64,000 nucleotides of DNA, taken from a virus. Below, one piece after another: positions 11,345 to 37,850 of this stretch. Positions within the stretch are counted from its first letter, which is position 1. Every line of letters starts with the position of its first letter. A program made the translations under genes and the position numbers. Below the pieces are notes generated by a model. It searched no databases and was not told the origin of the DNA. It was given only the letters and a program-made list of their open reading frames with translations. The stretch spans positions 49,975 to 113,974 of the IMG/VR virus record IMGVR_UViG_3300010354_000001; one strand, 5' to 3'.

Positions 11345-11459
11345 CGGACTTGACTCTCAGCTTCGCTGAGGGAGATTATCGGCTTCACAGAGTCTGCTTT
11401 TACTCTCGTATGAGTAAGTAGTCTTATTAACTCTCCACCTACGCCCATCCTAGGCGTAT
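11345..11459 (-). ncRNA. Orphan TnpB omegaRNA scaffold, copy C
   Basis: Near-identical to 37429-37544 and homologous to the tnpB 3' end; terminal hairpin replaced by CTCAGC-GAA-GCTGAG but AAGTCCG end kept. Confidence 0.75.
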
Positions 11460-12910
11460 GTTTTAATTATAGCATACTTTTCATCATTTACTATATTTTC
11501 CACTAAAGATTCTGGATTTGCATCAGCTTCTAATACATATTTCATCACTGAAGGTGAGTACCCAGAAATTAACTGAACATTTTTATCTTTACTTAAAGCT
11601 GGCATGTTTCCTGTACGCCCACTGACGTTCCAAAATACTACTTTAGGCATAGCATAGCCTGAAGCTCTAAATAAATCTTGTATATGCTCAAAGTTGGTTT
11701 TGCTTTTATTGGCTACATCAAACTCCATATCAGAGATTATTAATATGCTTTTAGGCATTTCTGATTCTGGAGAATTATGCTGTTTAGCTCTTCCTAGTAA
11801 TAACTCAAATACTTTAGTTAAATCAGTGTTATAGCTCCAATTAGCCTTTCTTAAAGCATCTACTTTTTCAAGTAAAGTGCCTTCAGGAATAGTAAAGAAA
11901 GCTGGATTCTCACTGAAAGTGCAAACTAAGTTTTTAAAGTCTCCTACTAATCTTTCTGCTAAATAGATACCTAGTCCGACAGATACATCCATAGGTTCTC
12001 CTGCCATAGACCCAGATACATCACACACTACCAGAGTAGATGATGCTTTTCCTTGTAGATAGTCTGGTAAAGCTTTCCATTGGGCATCTGCGGTTGCAGG
12101 ATCTTTATCAGTAGCTTTGACTAGATCAGAAGGAAATAATACTGAGCTATTTATCTTCTTTTCTCCTTTAACTACTGCTTCTAAATACCCGTTAAACCTC
12201 TCCTCTGAGTGTTTTCTGAACGCTTTAGAGTAGTTGCTCATGGCCTTGGAAGGAACATGCTCGTATTTTATCTCATCCCACTTCTTAGCTGACATTTGAG
12301 TCTCTACTACTTTAGTATTAGCTGCTAGTTTCTGTCTGTAAGCTTTCGGCCCGCCTGCCTGCTCTGTTAGTTTCTTTCTTAGCTTAGGATATTTTTTAGA
12401 CTTCTCCCTAGGTAGCCACTTGAAAAGTAAACTGTCAGTTGCTTCGCCAAAAGCTTCTTGTATATGTTTAAGAACTACAAGCTTAGTAAAATAGTGAGTA
12501 GTATCGCTCTCGTAGAGATCGAATAGATAATCCCATCTTGTGAAAGAGACTATGTTGTCTACGTTATTGATAATCGCACTATCGCTGACTACTCTTACTA
12601 TATCCTCTGAGTTTATCTGGCATTGGGTAGTTTCGTGTAAAGTAGCTAAGTAGTTAAGGGCCAGTTTAAAAAATCTTCTCTCTCCTAGTCCTCCCCGAAT
12701 AGCTCCTGCCCAAAAAATTAACTTAATAGTCTTTTCTCTGTCGAATTTGTAAGCTTTATCTATTAATGCAGTTATATCTACATCGCTCATCTTCCTAGAG
12801 GCTCCTGCTAGGAACACAAAATCCACTAAGGGGTTGAAAGATGATTTATTTGTTACAGCACCATTGTCTGTGTGGCCTGTGTTAGTTAAATTTTTGATTA
12901 GATTATTCAT
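11450..12910 (-). CDS. Ro60/TROVE-like helical-repeat + vWA protein (DUF2828-type)
   Basis: TDNGA, IRGGLGERRFF, KWLPRE, VVETQMS..KW.EI.YEHVPSKAM; vWA MIDAS CDVSGSM, IISDMEFD, VVFWNV. Confidence 0.85.
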   Translation of the reverse strand: MNNLIKNLTNTGHTDNGAVTNKSSFNPLVDFVFLAGASRKMSDVDITALIDKAYKFDREKTIKLIFWAGAIRGGLGERRFFKLALNYLATLHETTQCQINSEDIVRVVSDSAIINNVDNIVSFTRWDYLFDLYESDTTHYFTKLVVLKHIQEAFGEATDSLLFKWLPREKSKKYPKLRKKLTEQAGGPKAYRQKLAANTKVVETQMSAKKWDEIKYEHVPSKAMSNYSKAFRKHSEERFNGYLEAVVKGEKKINSSVLFPSDLVKATDKDPATADAQWKALPDYLQGKASSTLVVCDVSGSMAGEPMDVSVGLGIYLAERLVGDFKNLVCTFSENPAFFTIPEGTLLEKVDALRKANWSYNTDLTKVFELLLGRAKQHNSPESEMPKSILIISDMEFDVANKSKTNFEHIQDLFRASGYAMPKVVFWNVSGRTGNMPALSKDKNVQLISGYSPSVMKYVLEADANPESLVENIVNDEKYAIIKTYA

Positions 12911-12962
12911 AGGTTTGTTCCCTTTGCTTTTATTATAACAGACGTTCTAGTTTTTTGTGCTA

Positions 12963-13280
12963 TTAAATTTTACATACTTCCCGTCGACTCACTATGAGAA
13001 CTATAGCTCCTGCCCAGAAAGAGAAGAAAAGCATACAGTAATACACGAAATAATCTTCTTTTATTTTTCTTTCTGCATACATCAGGTCTACTAGATGGTT
13101 AATTCCATCCTGCCCCACCTCTAAGCACTCTGTAGCTTCTTTGTAGCATACTAATTTTTCTGTTGGGTGGACGGTTACGTAGTTTAGTGTATAGTAATCG
13201 TGTCCTCCCCCTGACCCATAATACCTTGCTTGTGCAGGGTTAGTTATTAATAATAACAACGCTAAGAGTAGAGTTCGCAT
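12963..13280 (-). CDS. Exported/membrane-anchored hypothetical protein
   Basis: Signal peptide (AQA site) and C-terminal TM helix. Confidence 0.7.
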   Translation of the reverse strand: MRTLLLALLLLITNPAQARYYGSGGGHDYYTLNYVTVHPTEKLVCYKEATECLEVGQDGINHLVDLMYAERKIKEDYFVYYCMLFFSFWAGAIVLIVSRREVCKI

Positions 13281-13726
13281 TAGCTATACTCCTGATATAT
13301 ACAAGTCTTTCTTACTTCAGGCTTAGTAAGCATAGCTACTTCGGCAAGTCTTCTTCTAGTTAACCCTTCTTCTTGTCCTGAACCCTTCTTAACATGCTGC
13401 CTCATAAGCCTAGCTGCTACATCTTTCTTACCTTGAGCTGCTAGTTTAACCACATCTGCGCAGCCTCCTCGGCCCATGTTATAGCAGTAACTAACTAAAG
13501 AGTCATGTTCATGCTGCTTAACATTTTTAAATATTAATTTAACGTGTTGAGAGTCAAGCTCCATGTGACTCTTCATTCGTTTTTTAGCTTCTACCTCATC
13601 TATACATTCCCATCTACTTCTAGCTTTAGTGCCAAAGCCGTTAGACCATTGAGATCCATCAGGGTATGCACAGCTTACGAAGCCTTCAAAACCTATTACG
13701 AAAGTCATTAATGTTTCAGTTATCAT
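13280..13726 (-). CDS. Lysozyme-like protein (GH24-related)
   Basis: FEGF...AYPD...WSNGFG, DSLVSY.YNMG, GLTRRR.AE. Confidence 0.8.
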   Translation of the reverse strand: MITETLMTFVIGFEGFVSCAYPDGSQWSNGFGTKARSRWECIDEVEAKKRMKSHMELDSQHVKLIFKNVKQHEHDSLVSYCYNMGRGGCADVVKLAAQGKKDVAARLMRQHVKKGSGQEEGLTRRRLAEVAMLTKPEVRKTCIYQEYS

Positions 13727-14223
13727 CTCATCGCCTCCTCGAATTTTTTTCTAAGCTTTTCTGGGTAGTTTTTGTGACACCATGCAAAGGCTTCGAATAT
13801 TGATTCAAGTTTACTGCTTCTATTTGGATCTAGGTCGAGAATCATCCAAGTCCTTAGATCGTTTATGAGCCAAGTTGAGCCACTTAGATCAGGTAAGCAC
13901 GCTTCAAGTGCAGCTTTGGGGATTATTGGGATAAGTGGGGTATACTCATCCCCCATCTTGTAATTTTTAAGGTCGGCTAAAGCTTCCTCCAAATCAATGG
14001 TGTAGGTATTTAACAAATCTACCTCATGGTGCGTCAGCATGTCAGTGAGTGTTGGGTTGACTAAATGTTCACCAAGTCTAAACCACTTTACAATTTTACC
14101 TTTGCTGGGATCACCGTTTGGAGGATAAAAATTATGCTGCCATTCAGTACAAATTTCAGTAAAATCATATCCAAGCTCAAGTATTTTTTTAGACTCTTCG
14201 TAAGTACAGTTAAGTTCAATCAT
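13723..14223 (-). CDS. Hypothetical protein, tandem paralogue A
   Basis: Shares three conserved blocks with 14220..14765. Confidence 0.8.
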   Translation of the reverse strand: MIELNCTYEESKKILELGYDFTEICTEWQHNFYPPNGDPSKGKIVKWFRLGEHLVNPTLTDMLTHHEVDLLNTYTIDLEEALADLKNYKMGDEYTPLIPIIPKAALEACLPDLSGSTWLINDLRTWMILDLDPNRSSKLESIFEAFAWCHKNYPEKLRKKFEEAMR

Positions 14224-14765
14224 TTCATCACCTCCTTGAATTTCTTTCTAAGCTCTTCTGGGTGGTGTTCATGACACCATATGAAGGCTTCGTAGGCTGA
14301 ATCAAACTCTTCTAGTAGTAGAGATGTTACTAAATCCCCATCCCTGCACAGTCGATATTCTAGAGGGTTACGAGGGATATACCACGTCAAATCCCCGTGA
14401 TAAGCATCTACGATATCAGGCAAGCACGCTTCAAGTGCAGCTTTGGGGATTATTGGGACGAACCCCTCCTCATTTGGATTGCAGAACATTTCTCCCTGTA
14501 CGAAATATTCGTTGTGTTTGTTATTATAGAGAGAATCTTCATAGTCTATAGATTGCCTCTCTAACGTGAACTTCTCAACATCAGTATTGAAATACTCCTC
14601 TGGGACTCGCATATATTCCTGTGCTTTTACTTTATAGTATTCAACTAAAATGTATTTATCTGAGCAGTCTCTTTTCTTGTATACGTCTCCAAACTTTTTT
14701 CCGAAGTCATATCCTAAGTCTAATATCTTTTTAGACTCTTCATAGCTACAGTTTAACTCTATCAT
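14220..14765 (-). CDS. Hypothetical protein, tandem paralogue B
   Basis: MIELNC.YEESKKIL.LGYDF / PIIPKAALEACLPD / EAF.WCH...PE.LRKKF. Confidence 0.8.
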   Translation of the reverse strand: MIELNCSYEESKKILDLGYDFGKKFGDVYKKRDCSDKYILVEYYKVKAQEYMRVPEEYFNTDVEKFTLERQSIDYEDSLYNNKHNEYFVQGEMFCNPNEEGFVPIIPKAALEACLPDIVDAYHGDLTWYIPRNPLEYRLCRDGDLVTSLLLEEFDSAYEAFIWCHEHHPEELRKKFKEVMK

Positions 14766-15100
14766 CTGCTTACTCCTACATATCTAATTCCAGTACGTGC
14801 TTGTTGAGGCTTGTACTCGAAAGGCTTATTTATGCTTGAATGAAAGTTCATACTGCTTGTTTGAGTAGCAGGGCCTTGCCTGTCAGTTCTTTGCATAGCT
14901 GTCAACTCATCCTCTAAATCGTTTACCATCTTATTGGCATCTCTAAGAGCTTCTTTTGCCCTATCTACTGAATATGATATTTGTCTTCTGTATGCCCTTG
15001 CAGCATCTAGTTCTTGTTGTTTTAAATATGTACTAGGTACATCTGCTGCTAGTGCAGTTTGTCCTGCTAGTATTAATGTTATTAGTATTAGTTTTTTCAC
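14762..15100 (-). CDS. Secreted coiled-coil hypothetical protein (start re-set to GTG 15100)
   Basis: AAGGAG RBS then MKKLILITLILAGQTALA signal peptide. Confidence 0.65.
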   Translation of the reverse strand: MKKLILITLILAGQTALAADVPSTYLKQQELDAARAYRRQISYSVDRAKEALRDANKMVNDLEDELTAMQRTDRQGPATQTSSMNFHSSINKPFEYKPQQARTGIRYVGVSR

Positions 15101-15164
15101 TGATTCTCCTTTTGTTTTTCTATTAAAAATTTGGGGGAAAATTCCCCCTTCCTTGCGGAACGCC

Positions 15165-15707
15165 TCACGCACTACAGTGTGCATTAAAAACTTTTTTCTC
15201 AAATTTGCAGACTGAGTCGTATATCCTCGTCAGGTCTTTTTTTAAATTTGCTAGATTTAGATTCTCTTCCGAAGCTTTACTTAAAATAAATTCCTTGTAA
15301 TTTTTTGTCACATAAATGTGTATGAGTAATTTAAGCATCTCTCTGCCAAAATCATGCTTGTATCTTCCAGTATGGTTAGAGTAGCCCTCGTTAGAAAAAT
15401 CAAAATACTCTAATTTTATTTTTTTGATTTGTTCTTTGATCTCATCTAAACTAATATCTGTCGGATTTGTAGAAGAATCACCACGAAGGAACTTAAATAA
15501 CTCTTTTTTGAAAACATTAATTTTTTTAAAATTTTCTTTTTCGATTTTAGTTATATTAAGTTTTGTGTGGCGGATTAAGTCTAGTAGCCTCTCGTAGTCC
15601 TGAAGCTCGCTAATCTTTATCTTCTTTAATAGGCGATTAGAGTCCATAAAAGTAAAAGTCTTATTGCTTAAGCCTAATATATCCCTAAACATCTTTCTTT
15701 CGTCCAT
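15165..15707 (-). CDS. Hypothetical protein
   Basis: 180-aa ORF with upstream extended -10. Confidence 0.7.
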   Translation of the reverse strand: MDERKMFRDILGLSNKTFTFMDSNRLLKKIKISELQDYERLLDLIRHTKLNITKIEKENFKKINVFKKELFKFLRGDSSTNPTDISLDEIKEQIKKIKLEYFDFSNEGYSNHTGRYKHDFGREMLKLLIHIYVTKNYKEFILSKASEENLNLANLKKDLTRIYDSVCKFEKKVFNAHCSA

Positions 15708-15865
15708 TTAACTTTTTCTCTCCACCCTTTCAATATACCACAAAAAATAAAACTCTAACATTAGAAAATGTTAATTTATGGACTTACACAAGTGGTTTTT
15801 CTTACAGTTGCTTTTTGTTCATGGTTTTGAACCATTTTTTTGTTACTCTCATTTAGACTTACCTT

Positions 15866-18034
15866 TTAAAATATTGATACCGATTGTAAAATTTGGCTCC
15901 AAACCTTCTCTACAAAATTACCTCCTTCTAAACCTTCAAACTGTTCTTGTGTGTAAGTCAGTAAGAAGCTTTTAGTTATTGGTAGATCGTTATACTTAGT
16001 TAATACTTCTTCTCTAGAAATCTTATCCCAGTTGCCTTTTTTATATATCTCTCTAAGCACTCTAATGTCTTTATAGATGGGAAGTTTAACTTTTAGAAAC
16101 TGACCTTCAGAATCTTCTAAGACGAAACCTTCGTCTAGCGAGTCTTTGGATCTCTCTATTAGCTTAGTCAATTCTGTAACAGTATTAGCTGTAAATACTT
16201 TAGTCTTAGGCTTAACTCCTATTGCTTTTGCTATAGATTTTACTTTCTCATAAGGCTCCCTGATAAACTCTAAGGTGTTATGCACTATATCCAGTAATAC
16301 TAGATGAGCTTTGTCGTACTTGACTATATGTGGATCTCGCACTGGGTCTATAACCTCAAACACAAAAGTAGTATTGGTGTCTTTAACATACTTAGTTAAG
16401 AACTCTACATCTAAGGTAGCGTGCAAAATGTCTTTTAAGTATTCTGAAAAATCAGAACTAGGGGAAGTTTTAGAAGTTATAAATAATTTATCTTTTTCAT
16501 GATCGTAACTAACTAAGCCTAAAAAACCATTCTCTTTAGTAAATACTTGTACTGGGTAAGTTAAGCTAGTTAGTTCTAATCCACGCTCTCCTAGATTAAA
16601 GAACTTCTCGTATCCTCTGGCTACTAATTTATTAGTTTTGTTGTTTATGAATAATCCTCTTGTTTTTATAGTTACTGAATCCCAAGATTTATCATAAAAG
16701 GCTTTTCTGGAAAAAGAATAAGAGTCTATATGATCGTATGTTTTCTTATTTATAAGTTTGCGATTTATATAGCTCTCTAAACTTTTTAGGAACTCTGGAA
16801 TATTCTCCTCTTTGCTCATAGGTGCTTTTGGGTTGTGGTATTTGATTATCTCTTGCCTATTTACATCATAAACTGAAAGATATCCTCCATGCTCTACAGA
16901 AGACTCTAAGCATACTGCACCATAATCAGTTATATAGCTATCATTACTCATGTTTCTGTGTCCGAATACTTGAGTAAAGCAAGTAAGTTCAGAACTGTGC
17001 CCATGGGGGTATAATTCCCTACCTAAACGCATATTTATACCTTTAGGGGTATAGTTATAGCCTTTTACCCCAGTCCACAAGTGTGCTGAAGGTTTTAATA
17101 CTATATCGTAGAAATTCTCTAGGTTCTGTTTCGTATCTACCCCAGCGTGAGTCACCAATATATTATTTCCCTCCTCTAACTGGACTACACAAGCATCGTA
17201 TAGTTTCTTTAGGAAATCTCTTATAGATTTTTTAGTTATCCCTGCTATTTTAGGTAGTGTTACGTTATTAAATGTACCTGATCTTGCTTTCTTGCCCATA
17301 CAGTAGTCTCTTAGATGTAGTTCGTGATTCCCCATTAATAGAGTTACGTTAGGCTTATCTGCTAATTCCATCATTCTGCGAAGCACGTAATTCTCATCAT
17401 CGCCACGATCTAAGTAGTCTCCTACAAAAACGTAATGAGTACTATCATCAAATTCACTTAAAAGTTTTTCTAGAGGTTTTCTACATCCCTGTATGTCGCC
17501 TACTATTAAAACCTTAATACTGTGCCTTTCGTACCTTATGCAAGGAATAAACCTGTTGGTCAAAAAATATGTATACAGAGTTTCTTTTAGAGTTTCCCCC
17601 TTAATGTGGTTATGATTATTTACAGCCTCATACCTTTCTTTCTGCCTATTTACCACTGATTCAGGAACGCTGTGTATTCCTCTAGTGGTATTATCTACCA
17701 GTGGAGTATTCCCAAAATCTAATACTAGAGTGTCATATAAATAGTTATCAGCTAATTCTTTAAACGGCTTCATGTCACTTTCTTTAGTGAATGTTGCATC
17801 TAATATAATTAGCTGCCCTTCATGCATTCTATATTCTACAGCTTCTTTAACTATAGCCCAGATAGATTTATCCATTCCCTGAGAGATAGTAGTTCTATCT
17901 AGTTCTACGTTATGTGTTACCCCTGCTACTGCATGTCTTATTTTATCAGGGCTTATTGTGTAGTCCTCATAGCCTTTAACGTAAGTGCTTTTACCTGTGC
18001 CTGAGACACCTCTTAAAAATATTAATAGTCTCAT
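15866..18034 (-). CDS. RNA end-healing/sealing fusion: polynucleotide kinase + metallophosphoesterase + Rnl1-type RNA ligase
   Basis: GVSGTGKST P-loop, LDATF; GDIQG/GDYLDRG/GNHE/THAG; RGLF, RGYEKFFN, KENG, FVFE, EGFVL, LKVK. Confidence 0.9.
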   Translation of the reverse strand: MRLLIFLRGVSGTGKSTYVKGYEDYTISPDKIRHAVAGVTHNVELDRTTISQGMDKSIWAIVKEAVEYRMHEGQLIILDATFTKESDMKPFKELADNYLYDTLVLDFGNTPLVDNTTRGIHSVPESVVNRQKERYEAVNNHNHIKGETLKETLYTYFLTNRFIPCIRYERHSIKVLIVGDIQGCRKPLEKLLSEFDDSTHYVFVGDYLDRGDDENYVLRRMMELADKPNVTLLMGNHELHLRDYCMGKKARSGTFNNVTLPKIAGITKKSIRDFLKKLYDACVVQLEEGNNILVTHAGVDTKQNLENFYDIVLKPSAHLWTGVKGYNYTPKGINMRLGRELYPHGHSSELTCFTQVFGHRNMSNDSYITDYGAVCLESSVEHGGYLSVYDVNRQEIIKYHNPKAPMSKEENIPEFLKSLESYINRKLINKKTYDHIDSYSFSRKAFYDKSWDSVTIKTRGLFINNKTNKLVARGYEKFFNLGERGLELTSLTYPVQVFTKENGFLGLVSYDHEKDKLFITSKTSPSSDFSEYLKDILHATLDVEFLTKYVKDTNTTFVFEVIDPVRDPHIVKYDKAHLVLLDIVHNTLEFIREPYEKVKSIAKAIGVKPKTKVFTANTVTELTKLIERSKDSLDEGFVLEDSEGQFLKVKLPIYKDIRVLREIYKKGNWDKISREEVLTKYNDLPITKSFLLTYTQEQFEGLEGGNFVEKVWSQILQSVSIF

Positions 18035-18045
18035 TTTGTTTCCTT

Positions 18046-18252
18046 TTACGAATTTACTTCACCTAAAGCTACTGAGTAATCATCAATAACCCAGAAGATT
18101 GTTTCTGGTTGCTGTCTCAATAACTCTAAAGATCTTATCACACTTTGTGGGTTTGTAGTTTTTATAATATGCTTAACGTGCACTGCATCCTTATCTGTAG
18201 GTTGTTCTACTGTGAAGTTTTCAAACTCTTTAAGCTCTTGTAAATCTATCAT
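18046..18252 (-). CDS. Small hypothetical protein
   Basis: 68-aa ORF with RBS. Confidence 0.6.
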   Translation of the reverse strand: MIDLQELKEFENFTVEQPTDKDAVHVKHIIKTTNPQSVIRSLELLRQQPETIFWVIDDYSVALGEVNS

Positions 18253-18292
18253 TGTTTTTGGTTTTCCTTTCCTACATAATAATCTACCACGG

Positions 18293-19135
18293 TTAAGAAA
18301 CCTTTATATTAAGTTTTTTTAATTTATAATCTTGATTCTGCCATGGGTATCCTCTAGGATTACAGACACAAGTTAAATTTTTACCTGCTATAGGCTTGTA
18401 AGTTTTTGCACTGTGTGTATGTCCGTAAACCCAGTACTGTGCAGTAGTGCCTTTAAGTAACTCTTCTCCATCAAAATTATAGAAAGATGTAGTTACCTCA
18501 TCCCTAAACTCTTTATCTTGGTGTTTTCTTTTATTACTAGGATTTATATGACTTACCATAATATCTGCTAGCTTATGCACTTGCTCTAGCTTCCTATATT
18601 CTTGTTCTGTTAGCTGATCGAATACTTTCAAGCTGGTGTATGTAGGTTCGTTCATGGTTCGCATCCAGATATCCTGTATACTCTCGTAGGTAATTAGCTG
18701 CTCAGATATATAAGATCCGTCATACCATCCCATGGCTCCTGCGATTACAGCATCGTCTATCAGCACATAACTGCCGTCAAGTAGATAAACTCCGTCTATC
18801 CCTTTTATGCTTTTAGCTAAATCTTTTACCCTATCCCAAGAACTCACATGGGTAGGTGAGTATATAGTCCATAGATCATGATTCCCTGTAACTACACATA
18901 TAGTCTCATAAATTTCTTCTCTGAGCCATTTTAAACAGTTTATAATTTGATAGTTGTGATGTCCTAAATCTCCTGCAACAATTAAATTTTTAGATTTAGG
19001 TTGCCAAGATCTAAATAGCTCCAGAAAAGTTTCTTTATTGTCAATATCTACTCTGTCTAGATTATATCTAGGAAAATTATGATCGAAAAAATCTAAATGT
19101 ATGTCTGAGCATAAATCGAAACTGACTGTCTTCAT
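18293..19135 (-). CDS. Calcineurin-like metallophosphoesterase
   Basis: SDIH, AGD, GNHD, SH, GHTH, NPRGY. Confidence 0.9.
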   Translation of the reverse strand: MKTVSFDLCSDIHLDFFDHNFPRYNLDRVDIDNKETFLELFRSWQPKSKNLIVAGDLGHHNYQIINCLKWLREEIYETICVVTGNHDLWTIYSPTHVSSWDRVKDLAKSIKGIDGVYLLDGSYVLIDDAVIAGAMGWYDGSYISEQLITYESIQDIWMRTMNEPTYTSLKVFDQLTEQEYRKLEQVHKLADIMVSHINPSNKRKHQDKEFRDEVTTSFYNFDGEELLKGTTAQYWVYGHTHSAKTYKPIAGKNLTCVCNPRGYPWQNQDYKLKKLNIKVS

Positions 19136-19164
19136 GTCGTTAATTATAGCATAAAAAGTACAAT

Positions 19165-19650
19165 TTGAGTATGAGATTATCGCCTAAAGGAATTAAATTA
19201 CTGCATGATAGGGAAGGTTGCGTTTTGACAGCTTATAAAGATACTGTAGGTGTCTGGACTATTGGGTACGGTATGACTTTCTATCCTAACAAAACTAGAG
19301 TTAAGCAAGGGGATAAATTAACACAGAAACAAGCAGATGATATGTTTGCCTATGTTCTAGAAAATGATTTTGAGAAACCTATAGAAAAGCTTCTAGTGGG
19401 TGTTACTTTAAACCAAGATCAGTATGATGCTTTGGTTAGTTTTGCGTTTAATGTAGGAGTTTCTGCACTATCTACATCTACATTGTTGAGAAATCTAAAA
19501 GCTGGGAAAATAAAAGATGCTAATAAGCAGTTTGCTAGATGGGTGTTTCCTGTTGAGATAACTTCTCGTAGAAAAGCAGAATCTAGGCAGTTTGCTGGAA
19601 TTGAATTTTCCGACAAGGCTGACCTAGACCCTTTGGTTGGTTGGTTATAA
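19165..19650 (+). CDS. GH24 lysozyme/endolysin (likely start ATG 19171)
   Basis: E-X8-D-X5-T triad (REGCVLTAYKDTVGVWTIGYG), QYDALVSFAFNVG. Confidence 0.9.
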   Translation: MSMRLSPKGIKLLHDREGCVLTAYKDTVGVWTIGYGMTFYPNKTRVKQGDKLTQKQADDMFAYVLENDFEKPIEKLLVGVTLNQDQYDALVSFAFNVGVSALSTSTLLRNLKAGKIKDANKQFARWVFPVEITSRRKAESRQFAGIEFSDKADLDPLVGWL

Positions 19651-19652
19651 AC

Positions 19653-20111
19653 TTACTCTTTAATCATTACGTTATAAAATAACGCTGAAGCTGTTGCCAG
19701 TGTGATTATTACGTATGGGAACCCTGGCATAGTCAGGGTTTCTCCGCCTGTACTCGCAGTGCTTATAGCAGATACCACTATAGATATTACGGCAGCTAAA
19801 GATAACAACACTAAAACTAGAGAGACTGGGTTTTCGTAAGCTCTATTAATCCACTCGATTCCAGCATCTTCCGCTAAAGAGTATTTATATTTTTCTAAGC
19901 TTTCAATAAACTCCTCGTCTTCCGTATTTTTAACTTCTTTAGCTAATCTAGATATCGTAGAAAGGCTCAAGCCTGTAGTTTCACTGATCTCTTTTCTAGA
20001 TACTCCTGCAAGTAACAGAACCCTAGCTGACTCTCTTGCTTCTGGAGTTATTACTGCTCTCTTCTTAGTTACTTTAGTAGCTTTGGCTACTGGTTTTTTC
20101 TTTTGTACCAT
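19653..20111 (-). CDS. HTH protein with two C-terminal TM helices
   Basis: GVSRKEISETTGLSLSTISRL HTH; two hydrophobic segments. Confidence 0.7.
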   Translation of the reverse strand: MVQKKKPVAKATKVTKKRAVITPEARESARVLLLAGVSRKEISETTGLSLSTISRLAKEVKNTEDEEFIESLEKYKYSLAEDAGIEWINRAYENPVSLVLVLLSLAAVISIVVSAISTASTGGETLTMPGFPYVIITLATASALFYNVMIKE

Positions 20112-20410
20112 TTTTCTTCTCCTTGTATCGTTATTTTGGTATATTTTCTTATGAGTTCTTTCAGATCTGCTCTAAATTCACTTATTAATATCTTAGCATC
20201 TTTTCCAGTTATTTTGCTTATTTTTACTAAATGATCTTTACAGCAACAAACTAGTATAGAGTACCCATACTCTACAGCCTTTGCACTCAGCCCATACTCA
20301 TACCTAAAGTCAAATACTTGGATTAGGGATTTAAACATGCGATCTAAAGAATATAGAACTAACTCTATATTTTCTGCTTGCATTTTCCACTTAATTCTAG
20401 GTCTTGCCAC
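20087..20410 (-). CDS. Hypothetical protein
   Basis: 107-aa ORF. Confidence 0.6.
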   Translation of the reverse strand: MARPRIKWKMQAENIELVLYSLDRMFKSLIQVFDFRYEYGLSAKAVEYGYSILVCCCKDHLVKISKITGKDAKILISEFRADLKELIRKYTKITIQGEEKWYKRKNQ

Positions 20411-20560
20411 TGCTCTTTAAACTCTCAAGTATAGAATAAAACTCATCCATAGCTTCTTTATTACCGCTAGGTATAGCTAGCCCACAAAGTAATAATAACA
20501 TTCTTAATATAGCTCTTTGGGTTTCTGCTAAACTATCTAACTTCTCTTCTAGATCTCTGT

Positions 20561-21154: not shown

Positions 21155-21163
21155 AATCCCTCC

Positions 21164-22008: not shown

Positions 22009-22051
22009 ATTTTCCTCCTAAATAAAAAGTCTAAATGTCCTGTCACTGCTG

Positions 22052-24329: not shown

Positions 24330-24346
24330 CTGCCTTAATTATACCA

Positions 24347-27115: not shown

Positions 27116-27118
27116 TAT

Positions 27119-27439: not shown

Positions 27440-27472
27440 TAAAATATTATAACACGAAATACGTATTTTTGG

Positions 27473-28093: not shown

Positions 28094-28107
28094 ACTCCAA
28101 GTGTACT

Positions 28108-28815: not shown

Positions 28816-28817
28816 CT

Positions 28818-29561
28818 TTATTTAGTGTACTGCTGAATGAAGTTCCTTTCATCTATAGTAATACTTGTTAAACTTAAAATCCAAGTTAGATAACTCACTA
28901 ATTCTCTTTCGTTATGTCGCACTAAGTCATCCATAGACTGTCCTTTAAACTTACCCTTGTTGAATACATACTTGCCTAATCCTTCTTGGAAAGTAAACCA
29001 GTCACCTAAAATAAACATCTCACCGAAACCTATCACTTGAGCAGTCTCAGGAATGTTTAACTCTTCGTACATCTCTTGCATCTTTTGGAATATCTGAAGT
29101 GTTGCAATCGCATCTACTTTAGCATCGTGAGCCCCTTCCATAATTTTCCCCGTATAAAGCTTATATAAGCTCTCTAGATTACATCTATTTAACTTTTTAT
29201 GTATTGCGTAAGGATCTATAAGATTTTTGTCTGATAGGGATAATTCAAAACCGCACTCTTTTAACTGCCTAGACAGTATAGAAAAATCAAAAGTAGCGTT
29301 AAACATGATTATGTTCTTATAGGCGTTTAGTATTTTAGATATTCTAGGAGCTACTTCAGAGAAACTTGGAGCATCCTTCAAATCTAATATAGAGATTTTA
29401 TGTATTTCTTCTGCGTCTGGAGATATGGGTACTGTAGGTTTTACATAACTGGAATACGATTTCCCGTCACTAGAAACCAGTGCTATCTGCACTATCTCGT
29501 CCCTCCCTAAATCGAGCCCAGTGGCTTCTATGTCTATAGATAAATACTCGTTTTCTCTCAT
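28818..29561 (-). CDS. DEDDh 3'-5' exonuclease (DnaQ-like)
   Basis: DIEATG, FNATFD, AHDAKVD; C-terminal GKFKG motif. Confidence 0.9.
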   Translation of the reverse strand: MRENEYLSIDIEATGLDLGRDEIVQIALVSSDGKSYSSYVKPTVPISPDAEEIHKISILDLKDAPSFSEVAPRISKILNAYKNIIMFNATFDFSILSRQLKECGFELSLSDKNLIDPYAIHKKLNRCNLESLYKLYTGKIMEGAHDAKVDAIATLQIFQKMQEMYEELNIPETAQVIGFGEMFILGDWFTFQEGLGKYVFNKGKFKGQSMDDLVRHNERELVSYLTWILSLTSITIDERNFIQQYTK

Positions 29562-29572
29562 ACTAATTAGTC

Positions 29573-29691
29573 CGGACTTGTCCCATTAACATACGTTAAG
29601 GGAGATTATCGGCTTCACCGAGTCTGCTTTAATCACCTCGTATAGTGAGTCTAGTCTTACTAACTCTCCACCAGCGGCCATCCTAGCCGCT
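29573..29691 (-). ncRNA. Native TnpB omegaRNA scaffold, copy A (overlaps tnpB 3' end)
   Basis: Canonical position; conserved with covarying stems in copies B and C; putative guide GACTAATTAGTATGAGAG follows. Confidence 0.8.
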
Positions 29692-30761
29692 TCCTTTGCT
29701 ATATTGATAGAAGCGTTCCTGTCTCTGTGGTGCTTTGCACCACATTTACAAGTCCACTCCCTATCAGACAGTTGCAAACTATCATTTATTCTACCACACT
29801 CTGAACAAGTTTTACTAGAAGGAAAAAATCTATTTACCTCTATAACTTGTTTGCCAACAGAGTTGGCTTTATAATTTAAGTAGTTAAGGAATAATCCCCA
29901 ACCAGAGTCAGCTATTGACATAGCTAACTTATGGTTTTTAACTAAACCTTTAATATGTAAATCCTCTACAGCGAATGCTTGATTCTCGCATTCGCTTACT
30001 AGAGAATTAGAAACTTTATGAGAGAAATCTTTTCTCTTATTAGCTATTCTCTCGTGTAGCTTTGCTACACGGATTCTAGCTTGATTTCTCTTTTTAGAAC
30101 CTTTCTGCTTTCTGCAAAAATCTCTTTGAGATTTTTTTAGTTTACTTAAATTTTCTCTTAAAAACTTATTAGGTTTAACTCTAACTCCGTTAGAAGTAAT
30201 TAAAAAATCTTTTAGACCAAGGTCTAAACCTGTTATACCTTCTTTATGTTTAATATTAGATAAATCTAAATCTTCTACTTCAAATAAACAAACTGCATAG
30301 TAACTACCAGAAGCAGATTTTTTAACTGTTACTTTCTTTAACTTGCCTTCAGGCAAGTCACTTCCTCTAAACTTAACTAAGCCTAGCTTCGGTAGTTTTA
30401 TTTTATTACCAATTAAGGAAGTTCCTTGTATTATGGAGTAAGATTTTTTGCAATACTTGTTTTTAAATCTAGGAAATTTACCTACCCCTTTAAAAAATCT
30501 ATTATAAGCTTCTGCTAGATTACCGCAGGTAATCTGTAATTGTGCTGCTGAAGCAGCACTAAGCCATGTATATTGCTTTTTAAGTTTAGGTAAAAGGTTA
30601 TTCATATCATAATTAGATAAAGATTTACCTGTTCTTAAATATTTCTTTTTACAAATCTCTAACATTTTATTATAGATAAATCTAGAACAACCAAACTCAA
30701 TCTCAAGTTGTTTAACTTGTGATTGGTTTGGGTAAAGTTTAATTTCTCTTGATCTAAACAT
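29586..30761 (-). CDS. tnpB: RNA-guided endonuclease TnpB
   Basis: HTH_OrfB N-terminus, FPRFK, RuvC GLDLG / VEDL / DRNAS all intact, CSEC..C.C zinc finger. Confidence 0.95.
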   Translation of the reverse strand: MFRSREIKLYPNQSQVKQLEIEFGCSRFIYNKMLEICKKKYLRTGKSLSNYDMNNLLPKLKKQYTWLSAASAAQLQITCGNLAEAYNRFFKGVGKFPRFKNKYCKKSYSIIQGTSLIGNKIKLPKLGLVKFRGSDLPEGKLKKVTVKKSASGSYYAVCLFEVEDLDLSNIKHKEGITGLDLGLKDFLITSNGVRVKPNKFLRENLSKLKKSQRDFCRKQKGSKKRNQARIRVAKLHERIANKRKDFSHKVSNSLVSECENQAFAVEDLHIKGLVKNHKLAMSIADSGWGLFLNYLNYKANSVGKQVIEVNRFFPSSKTCSECGRINDSLQLSDREWTCKCGAKHHRDRNASINIAKEAARMAAGGELVRLDSLYEVIKADSVKPIISLNVC

Positions 30762-30801
30762 TATAATTGGAGGTGTCTCCTGATTATATTATACTACGTT
30801 C

Positions 30802-31245
30802 TTAACGTATGTTAATGGGATAAGTGTGGATTCTAATAAATCTATCCATGTGCCTAAAAGGAAATTTATTGGCTATATACATGGTTTCCTGCAGTTCTAC
30901 ATTATCTATATAGTAGTGGGGTTTCTCTGGATCAAACTTAATCAACCCTGACTTTATAAGTCCTGAGATTATTTTATCTAACTGTTTGTGTAGATCTGCG
31001 TGAATCTCCCTATCAAGTATTATTAAGTTTCCGTTAAACCCATTCTCTCGATCAAAGTCTATATGGTGTATATCAAATCTGTTGTCGGGGTAAAATCCGT
31101 GTTTAGCTTCAAATTCATCAGCTAAAGCATAGCGATCATCATAATTACGCTTCCTGCTTGCAGTCCATCTTTGGATGTATTTAGGATAAAAAAGTCTCTT
31201 CTTCTTTTTCAAGCGTACTTTAATTGTATCCTCAGAGGTCAGCAT
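30802..31245 (-). CDS. HNH endonuclease-like protein; C-terminus supplied by element end
   Basis: DIHHIDFDRENG...NLIIL...H..LH; ends TYPINIR inside the TIR. Confidence 0.75.
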   Translation of the reverse strand: MLTSEDTIKVRLKKKKRLFYPKYIQRWTASRKRNYDDRYALADEFEAKHGFYPDNRFDIHHIDFDRENGFNGNLIILDREIHADLHKQLDKIISGLIKSGLIKFDPEKPHYYIDNVELQETMYIANKFPFRHMDRFIRIHTYPINIR

Positions 31246-34824: not shown

Positions 34825-34825
34825 G

Positions 34826-36796
34826 TTAGAAATCTCCCCAATCTGTGTCACCTTTACTGTATTCTGTTGCTCTCGCCTCGAAGAAGTTAGCATGTTCTTT
34901 GCCAGACATCATTAGATCCATCCAATCTAAAGGATTATCCTTAATGCCAAAAATAGCTTTTAATCCTAAGTTTTTAAGTCTGTAGTCTGCGATATATCTT
35001 ATGTAGTGCTTTAACTGTTCTGGGGTTAGCCCATCTACAGCCCCCATCTCGAAACAGGTGTCAATAAAATTATCTTCCAGTCTAACTATCTCTTCACAGG
35101 CATCATAAATTTCTTTTTTAAAGTCTGGATTTCTCAGTAGTTCATACTCTTTGACTAACTCTCTAAATAGGTACGAAACCCCATCAGAGTGGCAGTTCCC
35201 TACTATTGCGTGCTTAAGTCCTCTGCGTACAATTAAAGATCCTTCAGGCATAGTAAAACAGTACACTTTTCCTTTATAATGCTTTCTTTCTTGGTTTACA
35301 GCCTTCCACTTTCCTTCTTTAAGCTTTTTATTTATAGAGACTTTGTAGCTAGTATTGAATTTATCACTCCTATCGCCTGGACGTTCTTGCACAGTACACA
35401 AATACCCTGCTAATATAGCCACAGCTTGGACTTTGTCCCTAGATACTTCGCAAGTAGTTACATAATCTATGAATGAACCGTCCCCATACCTGTCATGCCC
35501 GTCCCAGTGCCCTATTTCTGATATTATGTCTTTGGCTTTTGCTGAACTTAGAGTTTCTAGGTTTATCCAAGATAAAGACTTATCCCTAAATATTATAGGA
35601 ATAATAAAGTGGTAGTTGGCGTACCCTTTCCTATCTAGACTAACTGTATATTTAATACCAGACTCAAGCAATAGCCTTTCTATCCTTTCTTTTTTGCGAT
35701 CTTTTTTTATGTTTAAATTAACACTAGTTCCGCCTGTCCTTTCCCCTAAATTTTTTGGACGTAAGTCCAATGACCCATATGCCTGAACTGCTATTCTTAG
35801 CCTCTCTAGAGGAGTTAACAGACCTTCCCCACCTACCCCACGCCCAGCTAATGGGTATGTGTATCTATTAGAACTTTTAATCTTTGCTAAATCTTTAGCT
35901 TTAATCTTTTGCAGGCTGCTAAATTTGTACCCATCCAGTGAGTCTGAAGGATTGTACTTATAGTTAAATAGTAAATCATGATCTTCGGTGCAGGCTATGT
36001 TTAGCCTAGCTTTACCATCCTTCATGTAAATCAGCTCACCATCAAAATCTTTTTCTATATAATTTATAGGAGTGTCAAACGATATCCCTCTAGTCGTTAA
36101 GTCCATCTGTGCTACTTTTTCCCCAAAAGCGACATCCCTAAATAACTTCCAGCCGTTCTCAGTTAATACCTCGGTTTTATCGTCAAAACAGTTCTCGTCT
36201 TTCACGCTCCAGGTTACTATCTGCCCAACTCCCTTCATTAAGCCCCTTCTAGGAAAGTTCATTAATACTGCGAAAGATGCGAATAAGCTTACCCCTTCTA
36301 TAAATCCGCCAAACACAGCTAAGTTTTTAGCTAGTTGCCTCGGAGTCGGTGCGATGTTAACTCTAGTACCGTCATCTAGAGAGTTTAGGTGCATCATATC
36401 AAATTTATCTCTCATAGCTGCGTAATCTTTAAAAGCCTCATACTCGGAGTCTGGTAAGCCTAAAGTATCATTTAGTTGGCTATATGCCCATGTATGTAAG
36501 ACTTCTGCGTTAGCAAAAGCTGTGAGCATCGCAGCTATTTCAGGCTTAGGAAAGTTCTTTATTAGAGAGGTATTGTAGTTATTCATTACCTCTTGATCTC
36601 CAATTGTAAAAAACCTAAGAATCTGAATTATTAAATTTTTTTCTGGCTCGGTTAACTTCTTATTAAAGTCGTAAATATCATCCGTCATCGGCACTTCAGT
36701 AGGAAGCCAGTGGGCCTTCTGCTGGTTAGTCATGTACTCAAAACAAATCGGATACTCTAAAGGTTTAGGAACCTCTCTCTTAGTTAAAATGCTCAT
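34826..36796 (-). CDS. nrdB: Class Ia ribonucleotide reductase beta subunit with intein
   Basis: WLPTEV, FFT.GD, E.LH..AY, EGVSLFASF, DEN|...|CH, NFFE. Confidence 0.95.
   Translation of the reverse strand: MSILTKREVPKPLEYPICFEYMTNQQKAHWLPTEVPMTDDIYDFNKKLTEPEKNLIIQILRFFTIGDQEVMNNYNTSLIKNFPKPEIAAMLTAFANAEVLHTWAYSQLNDTLGLPDSEYEAFKDYAAMRDKFDMMHLNSLDDGTRVNIAPTPRQLAKNLAVFGGFIEGVSLFASFAVLMNFPRRGLMKGVGQIVTWSVKDENCFDDKTEVLTENGWKLFRDVAFGEKVAQMDLTTRGISFDTPINYIEKDFDGELIYMKDGKARLNIACTEDHDLLFNYKYNPSDSLDGYKFSSLQKIKAKDLAKIKSSNRYTYPLAGRGVGGEGLLTPLERLRIAVQAYGSLDLRPKNLGERTGGTSVNLNIKKDRKKERIERLLLESGIKYTVSLDRKGYANYHFIIPIIFRDKSLSWINLETLSSAKAKDIISEIGHWDGHDRYGDGSFIDYVTTCEVSRDKVQAVAILAGYLCTVQERPGDRSDKFNTSYKVSINKKLKEGKWKAVNQERKHYKGKVYCFTMPEGSLIVRRGLKHAIVGNCHSDGVSYLFRELVKEYELLRNPDFKKEIYDACEEIVRLEDNFIDTCFEMGAVDGLTPEQLKHYIRYIADYRLKNLGLKAIFGIKDNPLDWMDLMMSGKEHANFFEARATEYSKGDTDWGDF
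35195..36190 (-). mobile_element. Intein (332 aa) with degenerate LAGLIDADG-type domain in NrdB
   Basis: CFDDKTEVLT...AIVGN|C; TEDH; IGHWDG. Confidence 0.85.
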
Positions 36797-36799
36797 AAA

Positions 36800-37216
36800 T
36801 TATATCTTTTCCCTTTCTGTTTCAAGTATAGCACCTGCCTTGGCTATATTTCTTGGATATTCTCTACCTCGCATAAAAAATTTACTATCTGTTTTAGTAG
36901 GCTTGTAGTATTTCTCTATAGTAGCTGTTGCAAGCTCTATATCAAAATCTTTGCAGCTAAAAATATCTACTGTTATAAATCCATTTTGGTCTGGAAAAGT
37001 GTGTACTGCTATGTGACTTTCTGCGATTAGCACTACTCCACTAACGCCCCACTCTTCTTCTACTTTGCCTTTATACTTAAAAACATAAGGAGGCATTATC
37101 TTTGTCATCCCTATCTCATCAGGCAACTTATCCAGTATATCTGCGGTTATCTCTACTGATCTTGTAGCTTGCTCATCGCAGCCGTAGAGTTCTAATACTA
37201 AGTGTGGTCCAAACAT
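36800..37216 (-). CDS. speD: S-adenosylmethionine decarboxylase proenzyme (pyruvoyl-dependent)
   Basis: GPHL...LYGC, GVSGVVLIAE|SHIAVHTFP, DIFSC. Confidence 0.9.
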   Translation of the reverse strand: MFGPHLVLELYGCDEQATRSVEITADILDKLPDEIGMTKIMPPYVFKYKGKVEEEWGVSGVVLIAESHIAVHTFPDQNGFITVDIFSCKDFDIELATATIEKYYKPTKTDSKFFMRGREYPRNIAKAGAILETEREKI

Positions 37217-37349
37217 TTGTATAAATATTGTTACTTAACTTTTGTGTTTTAAATATTAAGATTTTTGGTAAAATTTTAAGGCACGGACATAAAAGGAATA
37301 AATGGAAAACAATGAAAACTGCCGTGCCTATACTCCTATTATAGCATAC

Positions 37350-37544
37350 CAAACTTATCCCATTAACATACGTTAAGAATGTAGTATAATATAACTAGGC
37401 ATGATAACCAAGTGTCTATTACGAAAAATACGCCCAGGATGGGCGTAGGTGGAGAGTTAATAAGACTACTTACTCATACGAGAGCAAAAGCAGACTCTGT
37501 GAAGCCGATAATCTCCCTTAACGTATGTTAATGGGATAAGTCCG
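37350..37544 (+). mobile_element. 195-bp non-autonomous mini-element: TIR + promoter + omegaRNA + TIR
   Basis: 28-bp TIRs (26/28), TAGCATAC duplicated at 37342-37349 and 37545-37552, TATAAT at 37385-37390. Confidence 0.85.
37429..37544 (+). ncRNA. TnpB omegaRNA scaffold, copy B
   Basis: Homologous to copies A and C; putative guide TAGCATACTACCGAAAG follows. Confidence 0.75.
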
Positions 37545-37850
37545 TAGCATACTACCGAAAGATCTACTACCATAATAAAAAGGTGAATAATGAACTTGAT
37601 AATCTGTCTTTGGGTCTTGCATTAACTCCACATGACATAAAGAACCAAGACAGGGATAATAATCTCGTGGAAAATACGTTATTATGTTATTTTCTAGATC
37701 CTCTCTATCTAAGATAAACCATTGCACTTCACATTTGTCATCATAATTATAGTAAACCGCATAGTCAGTAGTCTCTACGGACTTACATGATGCATAACCT
37801 AACTCTTCCAATACACTCTTACAATGCTCGAACTTATCTATTGGATTCAT
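37518..37850 (-). CDS. Hypothetical protein; C-terminus extended by mini-element
   Basis: Ends RTYPINIR in the TIR; reconstructed empty site gives ...GSML-stop. Confidence 0.7.
   Translation of the reverse strand: MNPIDKFEHCKSVLEELGYASCKSVETTDYAVYYNYDDKCEVQWFILDREDLENNIITYFPRDYYPCLGSLCHVELMQDPKTDYQVHYSPFYYGSRSFGSMLRTYPINIR

Follow-up and report, generated by a model that had tools for sequence, protein, structure and literature searches.

A solo tnpB element and guide-bearing miniatures in a freshwater phage: possible use of omegaRNA-type scaffolds in trans

Results

A tnpB-only element and dispersed copies of its scaffold

The window analyzed here is a whole stretch of 64,000 nt, positions 49,975 to 113,974 of the virus record IMGVR_UViG_3300010354_000001. 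It belongs to a lytic-type freshwater phage of ~114 kb (complete genome, 113,974 bp). The window contains one full-length tnpB element, which we refer to as E1, with the following features:

29573..30829, minus strand: the entire E1 mobile element, full-length at ~1,257 bp, with tnpB as its only gene
29586..30761, minus strand: tnpB ORF, 391 aa, catalytic triad intact (Pfam, structure matches, residue reading)
30779..30829, minus strand: E1 left end with a palindrome and the promoter TTAACA-16-TATAAT (30815->30788; 11/12 sigma-70 match), 92% identical to the left end of copy B
29573..29700, minus strand: E1 omegaRNA scaffold, which covers the 3' end of the tnpB gene and extends up to the right end of the element, ..AAGTCCG (136.8 bits in the covariance model; H1, H2, H3 and terminal hairpin present)
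29553..29572, minus strand: E1 guide region GACTAATTAGTATGAGAGAA, read directly; it spans the ribosome-binding site and start codon of an RNase T-like gene

The TnpB protein of E1 matches three Pfam families, HTH_OrfB_IS605, OrfB_IS605 (RuvC) and the Cas12f1-like_TNB zinc ribbon (E 2e-11, 5e-19 and 4e-23, respectively). The preliminary description of this DNA held that all three RuvC acidic residues are intact, and indeed D180, E266 and D347 are present (GLD180LG, AVE266DL and HHRD347RNA), as are the zinc-finger cysteines. The triad aligns to GVDLG, AVEDL and HDRDENA of the best structure match, an AI-designed nuclease whose length and aligned range are those found for ISDra2 TnpB; among natural proteins with solved structures, ISDra2 TnpB is the nearest relative (E 2e-69). 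E1 has 30-nt inverted repeats at its ends (90% identity), and its right boundary is set by empty alleles in other phages. It is a mobile element of the IS1341 'solo TnpB' type, with no gene other than tnpB, and its scaffold ends exactly at the right end ..TCCG. The insertion took the place of an extended -10 box that belongs to the RNase T-like gene.

The final ~125 nt of tnpB (29573-29700, minus strand) are repeated at 37420-37544 (plus strand, copy B) and 11345-11467 (minus strand, copy C), as had been noticed earlier for ~115 nt. Three approaches agree on this: a BLASTN comparison of the tnpB region with the window (87% identity across 113 nt at 37436-37544, with E 5e-31, and 84% across 92 nt at 11369-11456, with E 1e-19), a repeat search that pairs 100-nt arms at 11364-11463 and 37424-37523 with 95% identity, and a covariance model with full-length matches to all three scaffolds at 134-145 bits. 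Direct reading confirms that the three share the 3' end AAGTCCG and then diverge, into GACTAATTAGTATGAG, TAGCATACTACCGAAA and ATTCTCTTTGAAGACA. The preliminary description counted one TnpB and three scaffolds, which is correct for the window. However, the complete genome adds a fourth E1-type scaffold, copy D (genome 12697-12895), and another intact element with tnpB, E2 (genome 7422-8677), whose TnpB matches the same three Pfam families and is 58% identical to that of E1. The E2 scaffold is divergent, scoring 51.6 bits in a covariance model built without it.

Anatomy of the miniature copies

The copies within the window and their surroundings are as follows:

37350..37544, plus strand: copy B, protein-less miniature of 195 nt, found by BLASTN, repeat search and covariance model
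37342..37349, plus strand: left copy of an 8-bp direct repeat, TAGCATAC, flanking copy B; relative L147 has the homologous 8-mer once
37545..37564, plus strand: guide region of copy B, TAGCATACTACCGAAAGATC, which opens with the 8 nt of the right repeat copy; its own flank is the only full genome match
11345..11467, minus strand: copy C, 5'-truncated and scaffold only; the DUF2828 stop codon (11450-11452) lies inside hairpin 1
11466..11474, minus strand: motif TGCTATAAT, resembling an extended -10 promoter, ~8 nt ahead of the scaffold of copy C
11325..11344, minus strand: copy C guide region ATTCTCTTTGAAGACAGACA, which extends into a structured-RNA array downstream of DUF2828

Copy B is not the bare 3' end it was initially taken for: it also has a left end with a promoter, 92-96% identical to the E1 left end. 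Its layout runs from this left end (37350-37399, with the promoter at 37363-37390) through a 5' hairpin (~37396-37418) to the scaffold (37420-37544), and its inverted arms of 25 nt are perfect, although the left-end terminus is degenerate (CAAACTT vs CGGACTT). The neighboring ORF gains eight unrelated codons from the insertion, and in-silico removal of copy B with one repeat restores its end, ..GSML followed by a stop. Copies B and D are both ~195 nt long and are built alike: the left end, with its 11/12 sigma-70 promoter, is followed by a 5' hairpin, a scaffold and a right end; they are internal-deletion miniatures of a sister element. Copy C consists of the right part and an 18-nt promoter piece, whereas B and D have both ends. 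This 18-nt string, AGTATGCTATAATTAAAA, is found without change in the promoter region at the left end of the L001 element. Copy C is the same miniature minus its left end and lies where the DUF2828 gene ends, with the extended -10 promoter-like motif ahead of it; its terminal hairpin differs in sequence (CTCAGC-GAA-GCTGAG). The DUF2828 gene is joined to the start of the copy C scaffold in contigs of X2, X3 and X4, and the end of the copy varies among strains. The motif TGCTATAAT occurs nine times on the gene strand and twice on the opposite strand.

Copies B, C and D are 83-88% identical to one another and only 75-83% identical to E1; the miniatures belong to a sub-lineage distinct from E1's own scaffold. 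Their anatomy supports reading them as putative omegaRNA-type scaffolds that stand alone, and each has an upstream promoter-like site and a guide taken from its flank.

Conservation of the scaffold structure

The scaffold has a conserved structure with covariation, as seen across 5-6 sequences: H1 and H3 each contain three compensatory pairs between the E1/L001 and B/C/D groups, which bears out the covariation first described for hairpin 1, and H2 is wholly exchanged in E2. For the terminal stem, E1, B and L001 share TTAAC/GTTAA, C has TCAGC/GCTGA, and D has TCTAG/CTAGA. Copies B and D form the 5' hairpin around the same loop with TAGGCAT/GTGTCTA and CAGGTGC/GCACCTG, respectively. As in known omegaRNAs, the scaffold runs over the 3' end of tnpB up to the right boundary of the element, which the vacant alleles of D, E1 and B place directly after TCCG. 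A search of Rfam with the scaffold gave no match above threshold.

Vacant alleles in wild phages

Element-free alleles in relatives had been postulated for all three loci of the window. For E1, B and D we found such alleles in related phages from the wild; for copy C, none was found among related phages. The E1 site is empty in contigs of X3, X4 and X6, which come from three separate studies and represent strains of 95-99% identity (contigs mostly 90-99%), and E1 is also missing at its site in relatives L175 and L176. The contigs of X3, X4 and X6 join position 29571 to 30830, skipping 1,258 nt with 8 other letters between, and their vacant allele reads TATGCTA followed by TACTAATTAGTATGAG, which matches the E1 guide at 15/16 positions. 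Copy D is missing in relative G001, where the flush junction is ..CTAGATA followed by ACCACATGG (guide match, 15/16). Copy B is missing in relative L147, but there the vacant allele matches the guide at only 10/16 positions. The polymorphism is also seen in the other direction: E1-like elements are present at other loci in G001 and L044, and our genome is vacant there (21854/21862). The E1-like element of X3 has its right-end junction at window position 15992, and the window has a 20/20 match to its guide, preceded by AAGTA.

The dinucleotide TA lies directly 5' of the guide match in 4/4 vacant alleles (GATA, GCTA, ATTA and AGTA). With a TA frequency of 0.11, this would occur by chance with a probability of ~1.5e-4, a figure to be read with the fact that the E1 register was picked after the other three sites had been seen. 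We take ..TA as the candidate TAM. Within the genome itself, no guide has a second match with fewer than three mismatches.

The strains with an empty E1 site, X3, X4 and X6, do have the miniatures; thus, miniatures often persist without a cognate tnpB at the E1 locus. The contigs with tnpB have lower depth in all three (24.7 vs ~65, 15 vs ~28, and 5 vs ~30, respectively).

Ends, junctions and mode of mobility

The left junctions of the copies are unequal, with +8 at B, 0 at D and -7/8 at E1, and no single known transposition chemistry accounts for these differences. It is possible, although we doubt it, that the family is an IS1595-like DDE transposon with inverted repeats and TnpB as its cargo, and that the miniatures are MITEs moved by cut-and-paste with a transposase supplied in trans. 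The ends fit this: there are true terminal inverted repeats in E1 and B (25-30 nt, loop and bulge orientation included) and in E2 (arms of 34 nt, 88%), and the polymorphic left ends of the L001 and X3 copies (CGGACTT and CGAACTT, respectively) mirror the right end. Inverted terminal repeats are also reported for all DDE-associated TnpB branches, and solo TnpBs whose ends match are reported as well (Altae-Tran et al. 2023, PMC10691335). The 8-bp duplication expected of a MITE at each insertion, however, is confined to B, where the single copy of the 8-mer in L147 confirms it; D is inserted flush, E1 has no duplication and lost 7-8 nt of its target, and the L001 flanks show no clean duplication. 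Moreover, the phage encodes no IS1595 DDE (PF12762) or serine transposase, its complete genome has no match to the Y1 transposase (PF01797), and no partner element with these ends was found in IMG/VR, where the end pattern occurs only in relative G001. The TnpB itself is nearest to that of ISDra2, which is Y1-associated. The DDE/MITE reading is about how the elements move, and use of the guides in trans could hold alongside it.

Palindrome-associated transposable elements (PATEs) offer another comparison. Like PATEs, B and D are fused from both ends and are too short to encode a protein. PATEs lack inverted repeats and duplications; D is flush and without a duplication, whereas B has perfect arms and an 8-bp duplication. 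A cognate Y1 TnpA was not found within the complete phage genome. Finally, tnpB elements and miniatures may spread in this phage population without any transposase, by RNA-guided cutting at TA-flanked sites and subsequent recombination or end-joining with the carrier genome. We regard this as improbable, but it would account for the exact right junction (..TCCG directly followed by the guide) as opposed to the ragged left junction, and for the clustering of insertions on the phage's TGCTATAAT-type promoters, which resemble the left-end promoter of the element.

Discussion

Possible use of the guides in trans

We lean, with slightly better than even confidence, toward a reading in which E1 is a solo-TnpB element and copies B, C and D are guide-bearing miniatures used in trans by E1-type TnpB. 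Each copy would be transcribed across its right end, giving an RNA with 16-20 nt of neighboring phage DNA as its guide, and E1-type TnpB from the same cell would take up these RNAs in trans. The nuclease would then cut co-infecting relatives that have the insertion-free allele, with a short 5' motif (probably ..TA) abutting the guide match. The occupied locus reads ..CCG at the motif position, and we propose that the carrier genome is spared for this reason. Recombination with the carrier genome could then copy the element in or exclude the rival allele. Such use of the guides by TnpB for homing is plausible. The compatibility of the miniature scaffolds with E1 TnpB is assumed, because these scaffolds are only 75-83% identical to that of E1 and none of the four closest TnpB relatives read (87-94% identical) has a full-length gene with the miniature tail ..PRMGVGGELIRLLTHTR...

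That same result would be expected if the miniatures were inert deletion by-products, carried along by transposition or recombination and never loaded on TnpB, with the scaffold kept solely for its overlap with the right end and the young age of the miniatures. Their presence in strains with an empty E1 site and tnpB at lower depth, the truncation and strain-variable end of copy C, and the degenerate left terminus of B also point this way. On the other hand, H1 and H3 are distant from the end and yet have each been preserved by three compensatory pairs; the 5' hairpin specific to the miniatures also covaries between B and D. In all three copies the scaffold is kept from hairpin 1 to the end, with a promoter-like site before each, and a right end serving transposition only would not need ~120 nt. 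We consider inert relics unlikely. Very improbable, in our view, is co-option of the copies as regulatory parts of the phage (promoters, terminators, 3'-end structures, or guides for binding without cutting). Some features would suit such roles: on the gene strand, copy B presents hairpin 1 followed by TTTTT, which resembles an intrinsic terminator, downstream of the preceding ORF; the DUF2828 gene has copy C as its 3' end, ahead of the structured-RNA array; and E1 took the place of a promoter box. However, TnpB has kept all its catalytic residues, the insertions are polymorphic rather than fixed between close strains, and the ORF next to B was lengthened by unrelated codons.

Relation to known systems

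Neither the idea of guides acting in trans nor the element type is new. PATEs often encode omegaRNAs that require TnpB in trans (Meers et al. 2023, bioRxiv 10.1101/2023.03.14.532601); they are known from haloarchaea (Dyall-Smith et al. 2011, PMC3119063), and minimal IS200/IS605 elements that encode omegaRNAs are known from Geobacillus stearothermophilus (Meers et al. 2023). Like the copies described here, PATEs are protein-less fusions of left and right ends by internal deletion, with subterminal palindromes and a retained omegaRNA; the terminal sequence ahead of the palindrome is variable, and TnpB would likewise be needed in trans. Unlike PATEs, our copies reside in a lytic-type freshwater phage whose genome has no Y1 TnpA, and they have inverted-repeat ends, with an 8-bp duplication at B and, in copy C, fusion to the stop codon of a gene in place of a left end. 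Standalone omegaRNAs work in trans, according to the summary of 2021 work in Altae-Tran et al. 2023 (PMC10691335). Those loci, too, are mobilized, lack an effector and a transposase, occur in genomes that also have an effector locus, and add targets without a second nuclease; however, the scaffolds here have diverged from that of the resident effector (75-83% identity), and their function in trans is putative.

E1 resembles the IS1341 solo TnpB and DDE-associated TnpB branches (PMC10691335) in having tnpB only, an omegaRNA that ends <=250 bp from the element end, symmetrical ends and presumed mobilization in trans, but no matching transposase was found for it, and a duplication is present at one examined insertion only. 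With ISDra2 TnpB-omegaRNA (PDB 8EXA, 8H1J, 8BF8), it shares the domain order, the D-E-D triad, the zinc finger and a guide 3' of the scaffold. ISDra2, however, is a Y1 TnpA element with the TAM TTGAT, whereas the vacant alleles here suggest ..TA and the scaffold has no Rfam match above threshold. The proposed cutting of a co-infecting element-free allele, followed by copy-in or marker exclusion, parallels the free-standing homing endonucleases of T-even phages and the class termed 'transposon non-restorative homing' (PMC13565253). Transposon homing into co-infecting phages is also a listed category in a 2026 review. In contrast to T-even homing endonucleases, recognition would be guided by RNA rather than protein, and one nuclease could serve several loci.

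Because the concept and the element type have been published, the value of this family lies not in a new principle but in a well-documented population polymorphism and in the unexplained behavior of the left junctions. Carrier and vacant alleles co-circulate in freshwater samples of several studies, and some guides match 15-20 of 16-20 positions. If the proposed mechanism is true, these phages would provide a natural, testable setting for RNA-guided homing among co-infecting phages, in which one nuclease gene is combined with several guide-only loci.

The tnpB element E1 and the recurrence of its 3' end

The phage record spans 113,974 bp with direct terminal repeats and has an IMG/VR completeness rating of 100%; the window covers its positions 49975-113974. 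The following features are considered here, in window coordinates unless the genome (the whole record) is named:

29586-30761, minus strand: tnpB ORF, 391 aa, with Pfam domains HTH_OrfB_IS605, OrfB_IS605 and Cas12f1-like_TNB
29573-30829, minus strand: element E1, ~1,257 bp, enclosing tnpB
37350-37544, plus strand: copy B, a 195-nt internal-deletion miniature
genome 12697-12895, outside the window: miniature D, sister of B
genome 7422-8677 (L141:923-2178), outside the window: E2, a second intact tnpB-only element

The RuvC acidic residues of the E1 TnpB (D180, E266 and D347) are all intact, in agreement with the preliminary description, as are the zinc-finger cysteines, and the top natural solved relative of this protein is ISDra2 TnpB (E 2e-69). 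The left end of E1 contains a palindrome and a predicted sigma-70 promoter, TTAACA-16-TATAAT (11/12 match). In the 5' leader (30745-30800, minus strand), the tnpB Shine-Dalgarno sequence AGGAG is followed by ACA-CCTCC, which is able to pair with it and may thereby act as a translational brake on tnpB. The RNase T-like gene lost its upstream extended -10 box through the E1 insertion and therefore may now rely on read-through from tnpB.

The 3' end of tnpB had been described as recurring twice, and a BLASTN search of the window with the tnpB region recovered both recurrences: the last ~115 nt are found again at 37436-37544 (plus strand, 87%, E 5e-31) in copy B and at 11369-11456 (minus strand, 84%, E 1e-19) in copy C. 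Direct reading bears out that all three window copies share the AAGTCCG terminus and then diverge. A covariance model trained on scaffold copies, with E2 left out, placed the full-length matches in the window at 37420-37544, 29573-29700 and 11345-11467, recovered the E2 scaffold at 51.6 bits, and found no more copies in the whole genome. Thus, the earlier picture of one TnpB and three scaffolds holds within the window, but the whole phage adds the tnpB element E2 and the scaffold of D. The E2 TnpB (about 390 aa) has 58% amino acid identity to the E1 protein; the ends of E2 are inverted, starting CGGAATAATCCC.., its right end closes ..TTCCG, its scaffold is divergent, and no miniature derivative of it was found in the genome.

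Protein-less copies and scaffold structure

Copy B starts with a left end of E1 type (92-96% identity) that includes the same promoter; a hairpin of 7 bp and a linker rich in A lead from there to the scaffold and its right end. On the gene strand (minus), positions 37429-37447 read as the reverse complement of B hairpin 1 followed by TTTTT, with an intrinsic-terminator-like score, directly after a 110-aa ORF that B has lengthened by eight codons (RTYPINIR). Copy C is missing the left-end palindrome, and its scaffold begins ~8 nt downstream of the extended -10 motif TGCTATAAT; upstream of C, 18 nt (AGTATGCTATAATTAAAA) agree at every position with the left-end promoter region in the E1-like element of the relative L001. 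Hairpin 1 of copy C contains the stop codon of a DUF2828/DUF7788 gene (486 aa).

Folding and alignment give a scaffold with helix H1, a small H2, and H3, whose loop ATACGA is conserved; a terminal hairpin directly precedes ..AAGTCCG. When E1 and L001 are compared with B, C and D, three compensatory pairs are seen in H1 and three in H3, and in E2 the whole of H2 is swapped from AGTT/GACT to GGGC/GCCC. E1, B and L001 share the terminal stem TTAAC/GTTAA, for which C has TCAGC/GCTGA and D has TCTAG/CTAGA. A 5' hairpin with the loop GATAACCAA is confined to the miniatures, where B pairs TAGGCAT with GTGTCTA and D pairs CAGGTGC with GCACCTG. Identity is 83-88% among copies B, C and D and 75-83% between them and E1; all three stay open in the frame of the TnpB tail (..PRMGVGGELIRLLTHTR..), a tail lacking from the four closest TnpB relatives inspected (87-94% identical). 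This mutual likeness and the absence of the tail from those relatives indicate that, by sequence, the miniatures are a distinct sub-lineage within the E1-type scaffolds.

Vacant alleles and population polymorphism

Sites without the insertion were found for E1, B and D. Miniature D is absent from G001, a 15-kb IMG/VR contig of about 85% nucleotide identity: the vacant site there reads ..CTAACTAGATA|ACCACATGGTAAACTT and the occupied one ..CTAACTAGATA|GTTCCCC....AAATCCG|ACCAAATGGTAAACTT, so that the insertion is flush, without duplication; agreement between the vacant site and the D guide is 15/16. G001 and the metagenome contig L044 have an E1-like element (TnpB 90% aa) at another locus, which is vacant in this phage (genome 21854/21862). 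E1 itself is missing from two relatives (L175 and L176). B is missing from the relative L147, where the 8-mer flanking B twice in the window is single; deleting B and one repeat in silico gives back the neighbouring ORF end ..GSML*. In the relative L146 the gene order is rearranged, and it is uninformative on the B site.

We also aligned contigs from four freshwater metagenome runs (X2, X3, X4 and X6, from four studies) to window positions 11001-31000. In the main strain of X3, X4 and X6 (contigs mostly 90-99% identical), 29571 is joined to 30830 with ATAGCATA between; this joint defines a vacant E1 allele, ..TTAGAATTATGCTA|TACTAATTAGTATGAG on the minus strand, which matches the E1 guide at 15/16 positions. 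The same three runs also have tnpB contigs, at lower depth and other locations, and B-type and D-type internal sequences. An element in X3 has its right-end junction at window position 15992, and the window carries an uninterrupted 20/20 target of its guide, with AAGTA just 5'.

A sub-population in run X3 has tnpB-element junctions at 15992 for the right end and 16925 for the left end; the element may have replaced about 932 nt of the ligase region there. The gene concerned (15866-18034, minus strand) encodes a 722-aa protein in which polynucleotide kinase (AAA_33), phosphatase (Metallophos) and T4 Rnl1-type RNA ligase are fused, likely a tRNA-repair enzyme.

DUF2828 is joined to the start of the C scaffold in X2, X3 and X4; its IMG/VR relatives reach no more than 38% identity, too distant to supply a vacant allele for copy C. 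At the copy C locus (11345-11376, minus strand), the X3/X4 contigs read a canonical TTAAC hairpin..AAGTCCG, then ATT, TCCCTCAGCGAAGCTGAGAGTCAAGTCCG and ATTCTC, which implies two tandem right-end termini there versus one in the window. The window form lacks 33 nt, which recombination at the repeat TCCCT may have removed.

A candidate adjacent motif

The dinucleotide TA stands directly 5' of the guide match in all four vacant alleles, GATA (D), GCTA (E1), ATTA (B) and AGTA (X3 element), with the E1 register picked once the other three sites had been seen; at a TA frequency of 0.11, four of four would arise by chance at ~1.5e-4. We regard ..TA as a candidate adjacent motif. Every occupied locus reads ..CCG at this position, and none of the guides has a second genomic site with fewer than three mismatches. 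Deriving one motif from left-flank sequences failed because left-end termini vary among copies; a consistent motif emerged only when the vacant alleles were read 5' of the guide match.

The extended -10 motif TGCTATAAT/TGCTATACT occurs at the sites of E1 (29571/30830 vacant allele), B (37342-37352) and C (11466-11474). The 7-mer TATGCTA, common to the E1 and B sites, was considered as a transposase target mark. A simpler reading is that it belongs to the extended -10 promoter consensus of the phage, since TGCTATAAT is present nine times on the gene strand of the genome (and twice on the other).

Neighbouring features

Downstream of the DUF2828/DUF7788 gene (ORF 11450-12910), positions 10900-11340 (minus strand) hold repeated tRNA-like pieces; those at 11103-11154 and 11236-11287 have the T-arm GGTTCAAATCC, an acceptor-like hairpin and a D-arm, in that order. 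The copy C guide extends into the first piece. The sole ARAGORN and Rfam call in this region is tRNA-Ile(TAT) at 10995-11072. The ribonucleotide reductase small-subunit gene (34826-36796, minus strand, 656 aa) shows weak mid-protein similarity to the Hint module, probably an intein, and adjoins an S-adenosylmethionine decarboxylase gene (36800-37216). At 6962-7075, tandem CCCAAG/CCGAAG-type units of 6-7 nt form a G+C-rich tract of ~110 nt in surroundings of 33% G+C.

Mobility, mechanism and known systems

True inverted-repeat ends and the 8-bp duplication at B point to a possible DDE-type transposon, by analogy with DDE-associated TnpB branches, which were described with inverted terminal repeats (Altae-Tran et al. 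2023, PMC10691335). D is flush, E1 is short of 7-8 bases of its target, and the flanks of L001 do not form a clean duplication. A gene for a Y1, serine or IS1595 transposase is absent from the phage genome, and no partner transposase element with CGGACTTAT..-type ends was found in IMG/VR. The right junction is exact in all copies and the left one varies; IS605-type elements have been described earlier with variation in the terminal sequence ahead of the palindrome.

The anatomy is observed; as to mechanism, we infer that the copies most likely work by trans-guided cutting and copying-in. Transcription of each copy would start at its own promoter and run across the right end, its RNA would be loaded in trans by an E1-type TnpB, the complexes would cut TA-flanked vacant alleles of co-infecting relatives, and recombination with the carrier genome would copy the insertion into the cut allele. 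On the one hand, element-free alleles, the trans targets proposed in the preliminary description, do exist for E1, B and D. On the other hand, the miniatures are also present in strains with an empty E1 site, which counts against simple dependence on E1. The preliminary observation is thus confirmed, and its interpretation has support in part.

Above the gathering score, Rfam returned two tRNAs only and no scaffold family, and a relaxed scan gave only RAGATH-18, sub-threshold at 18.7 bits against a cut-off of 44.9. INPHARED phages gave no megablast match. The scaffold pattern was found in IMG/VR only in G001 and in metagenomes as one true match (L044) among 46; its 74 matches in genomes, including several Nostoc loci, were chance matches with no tnpB close by. 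For the ~40%-identical TnpB genes L002-L015, a search of the 3' ends with the covariance model detected no scaffold. The closest named cellular TnpBs are about 42-46% identical and mostly cyanobacterial, a weak hint at the host.

Protein-less end-fusions of IS605-type elements (PATEs) are already known, and they often encode omegaRNAs dependent on TnpB in trans (Meers et al. 2023, bioRxiv 10.1101/2023.03.14.532601); homing into co-infecting phages is a listed category in a 2026 review. E1 and its miniatures belong to an already known kind of element; their moderate interest lies in the fact that alleles with and without the insertions circulate together in nature.
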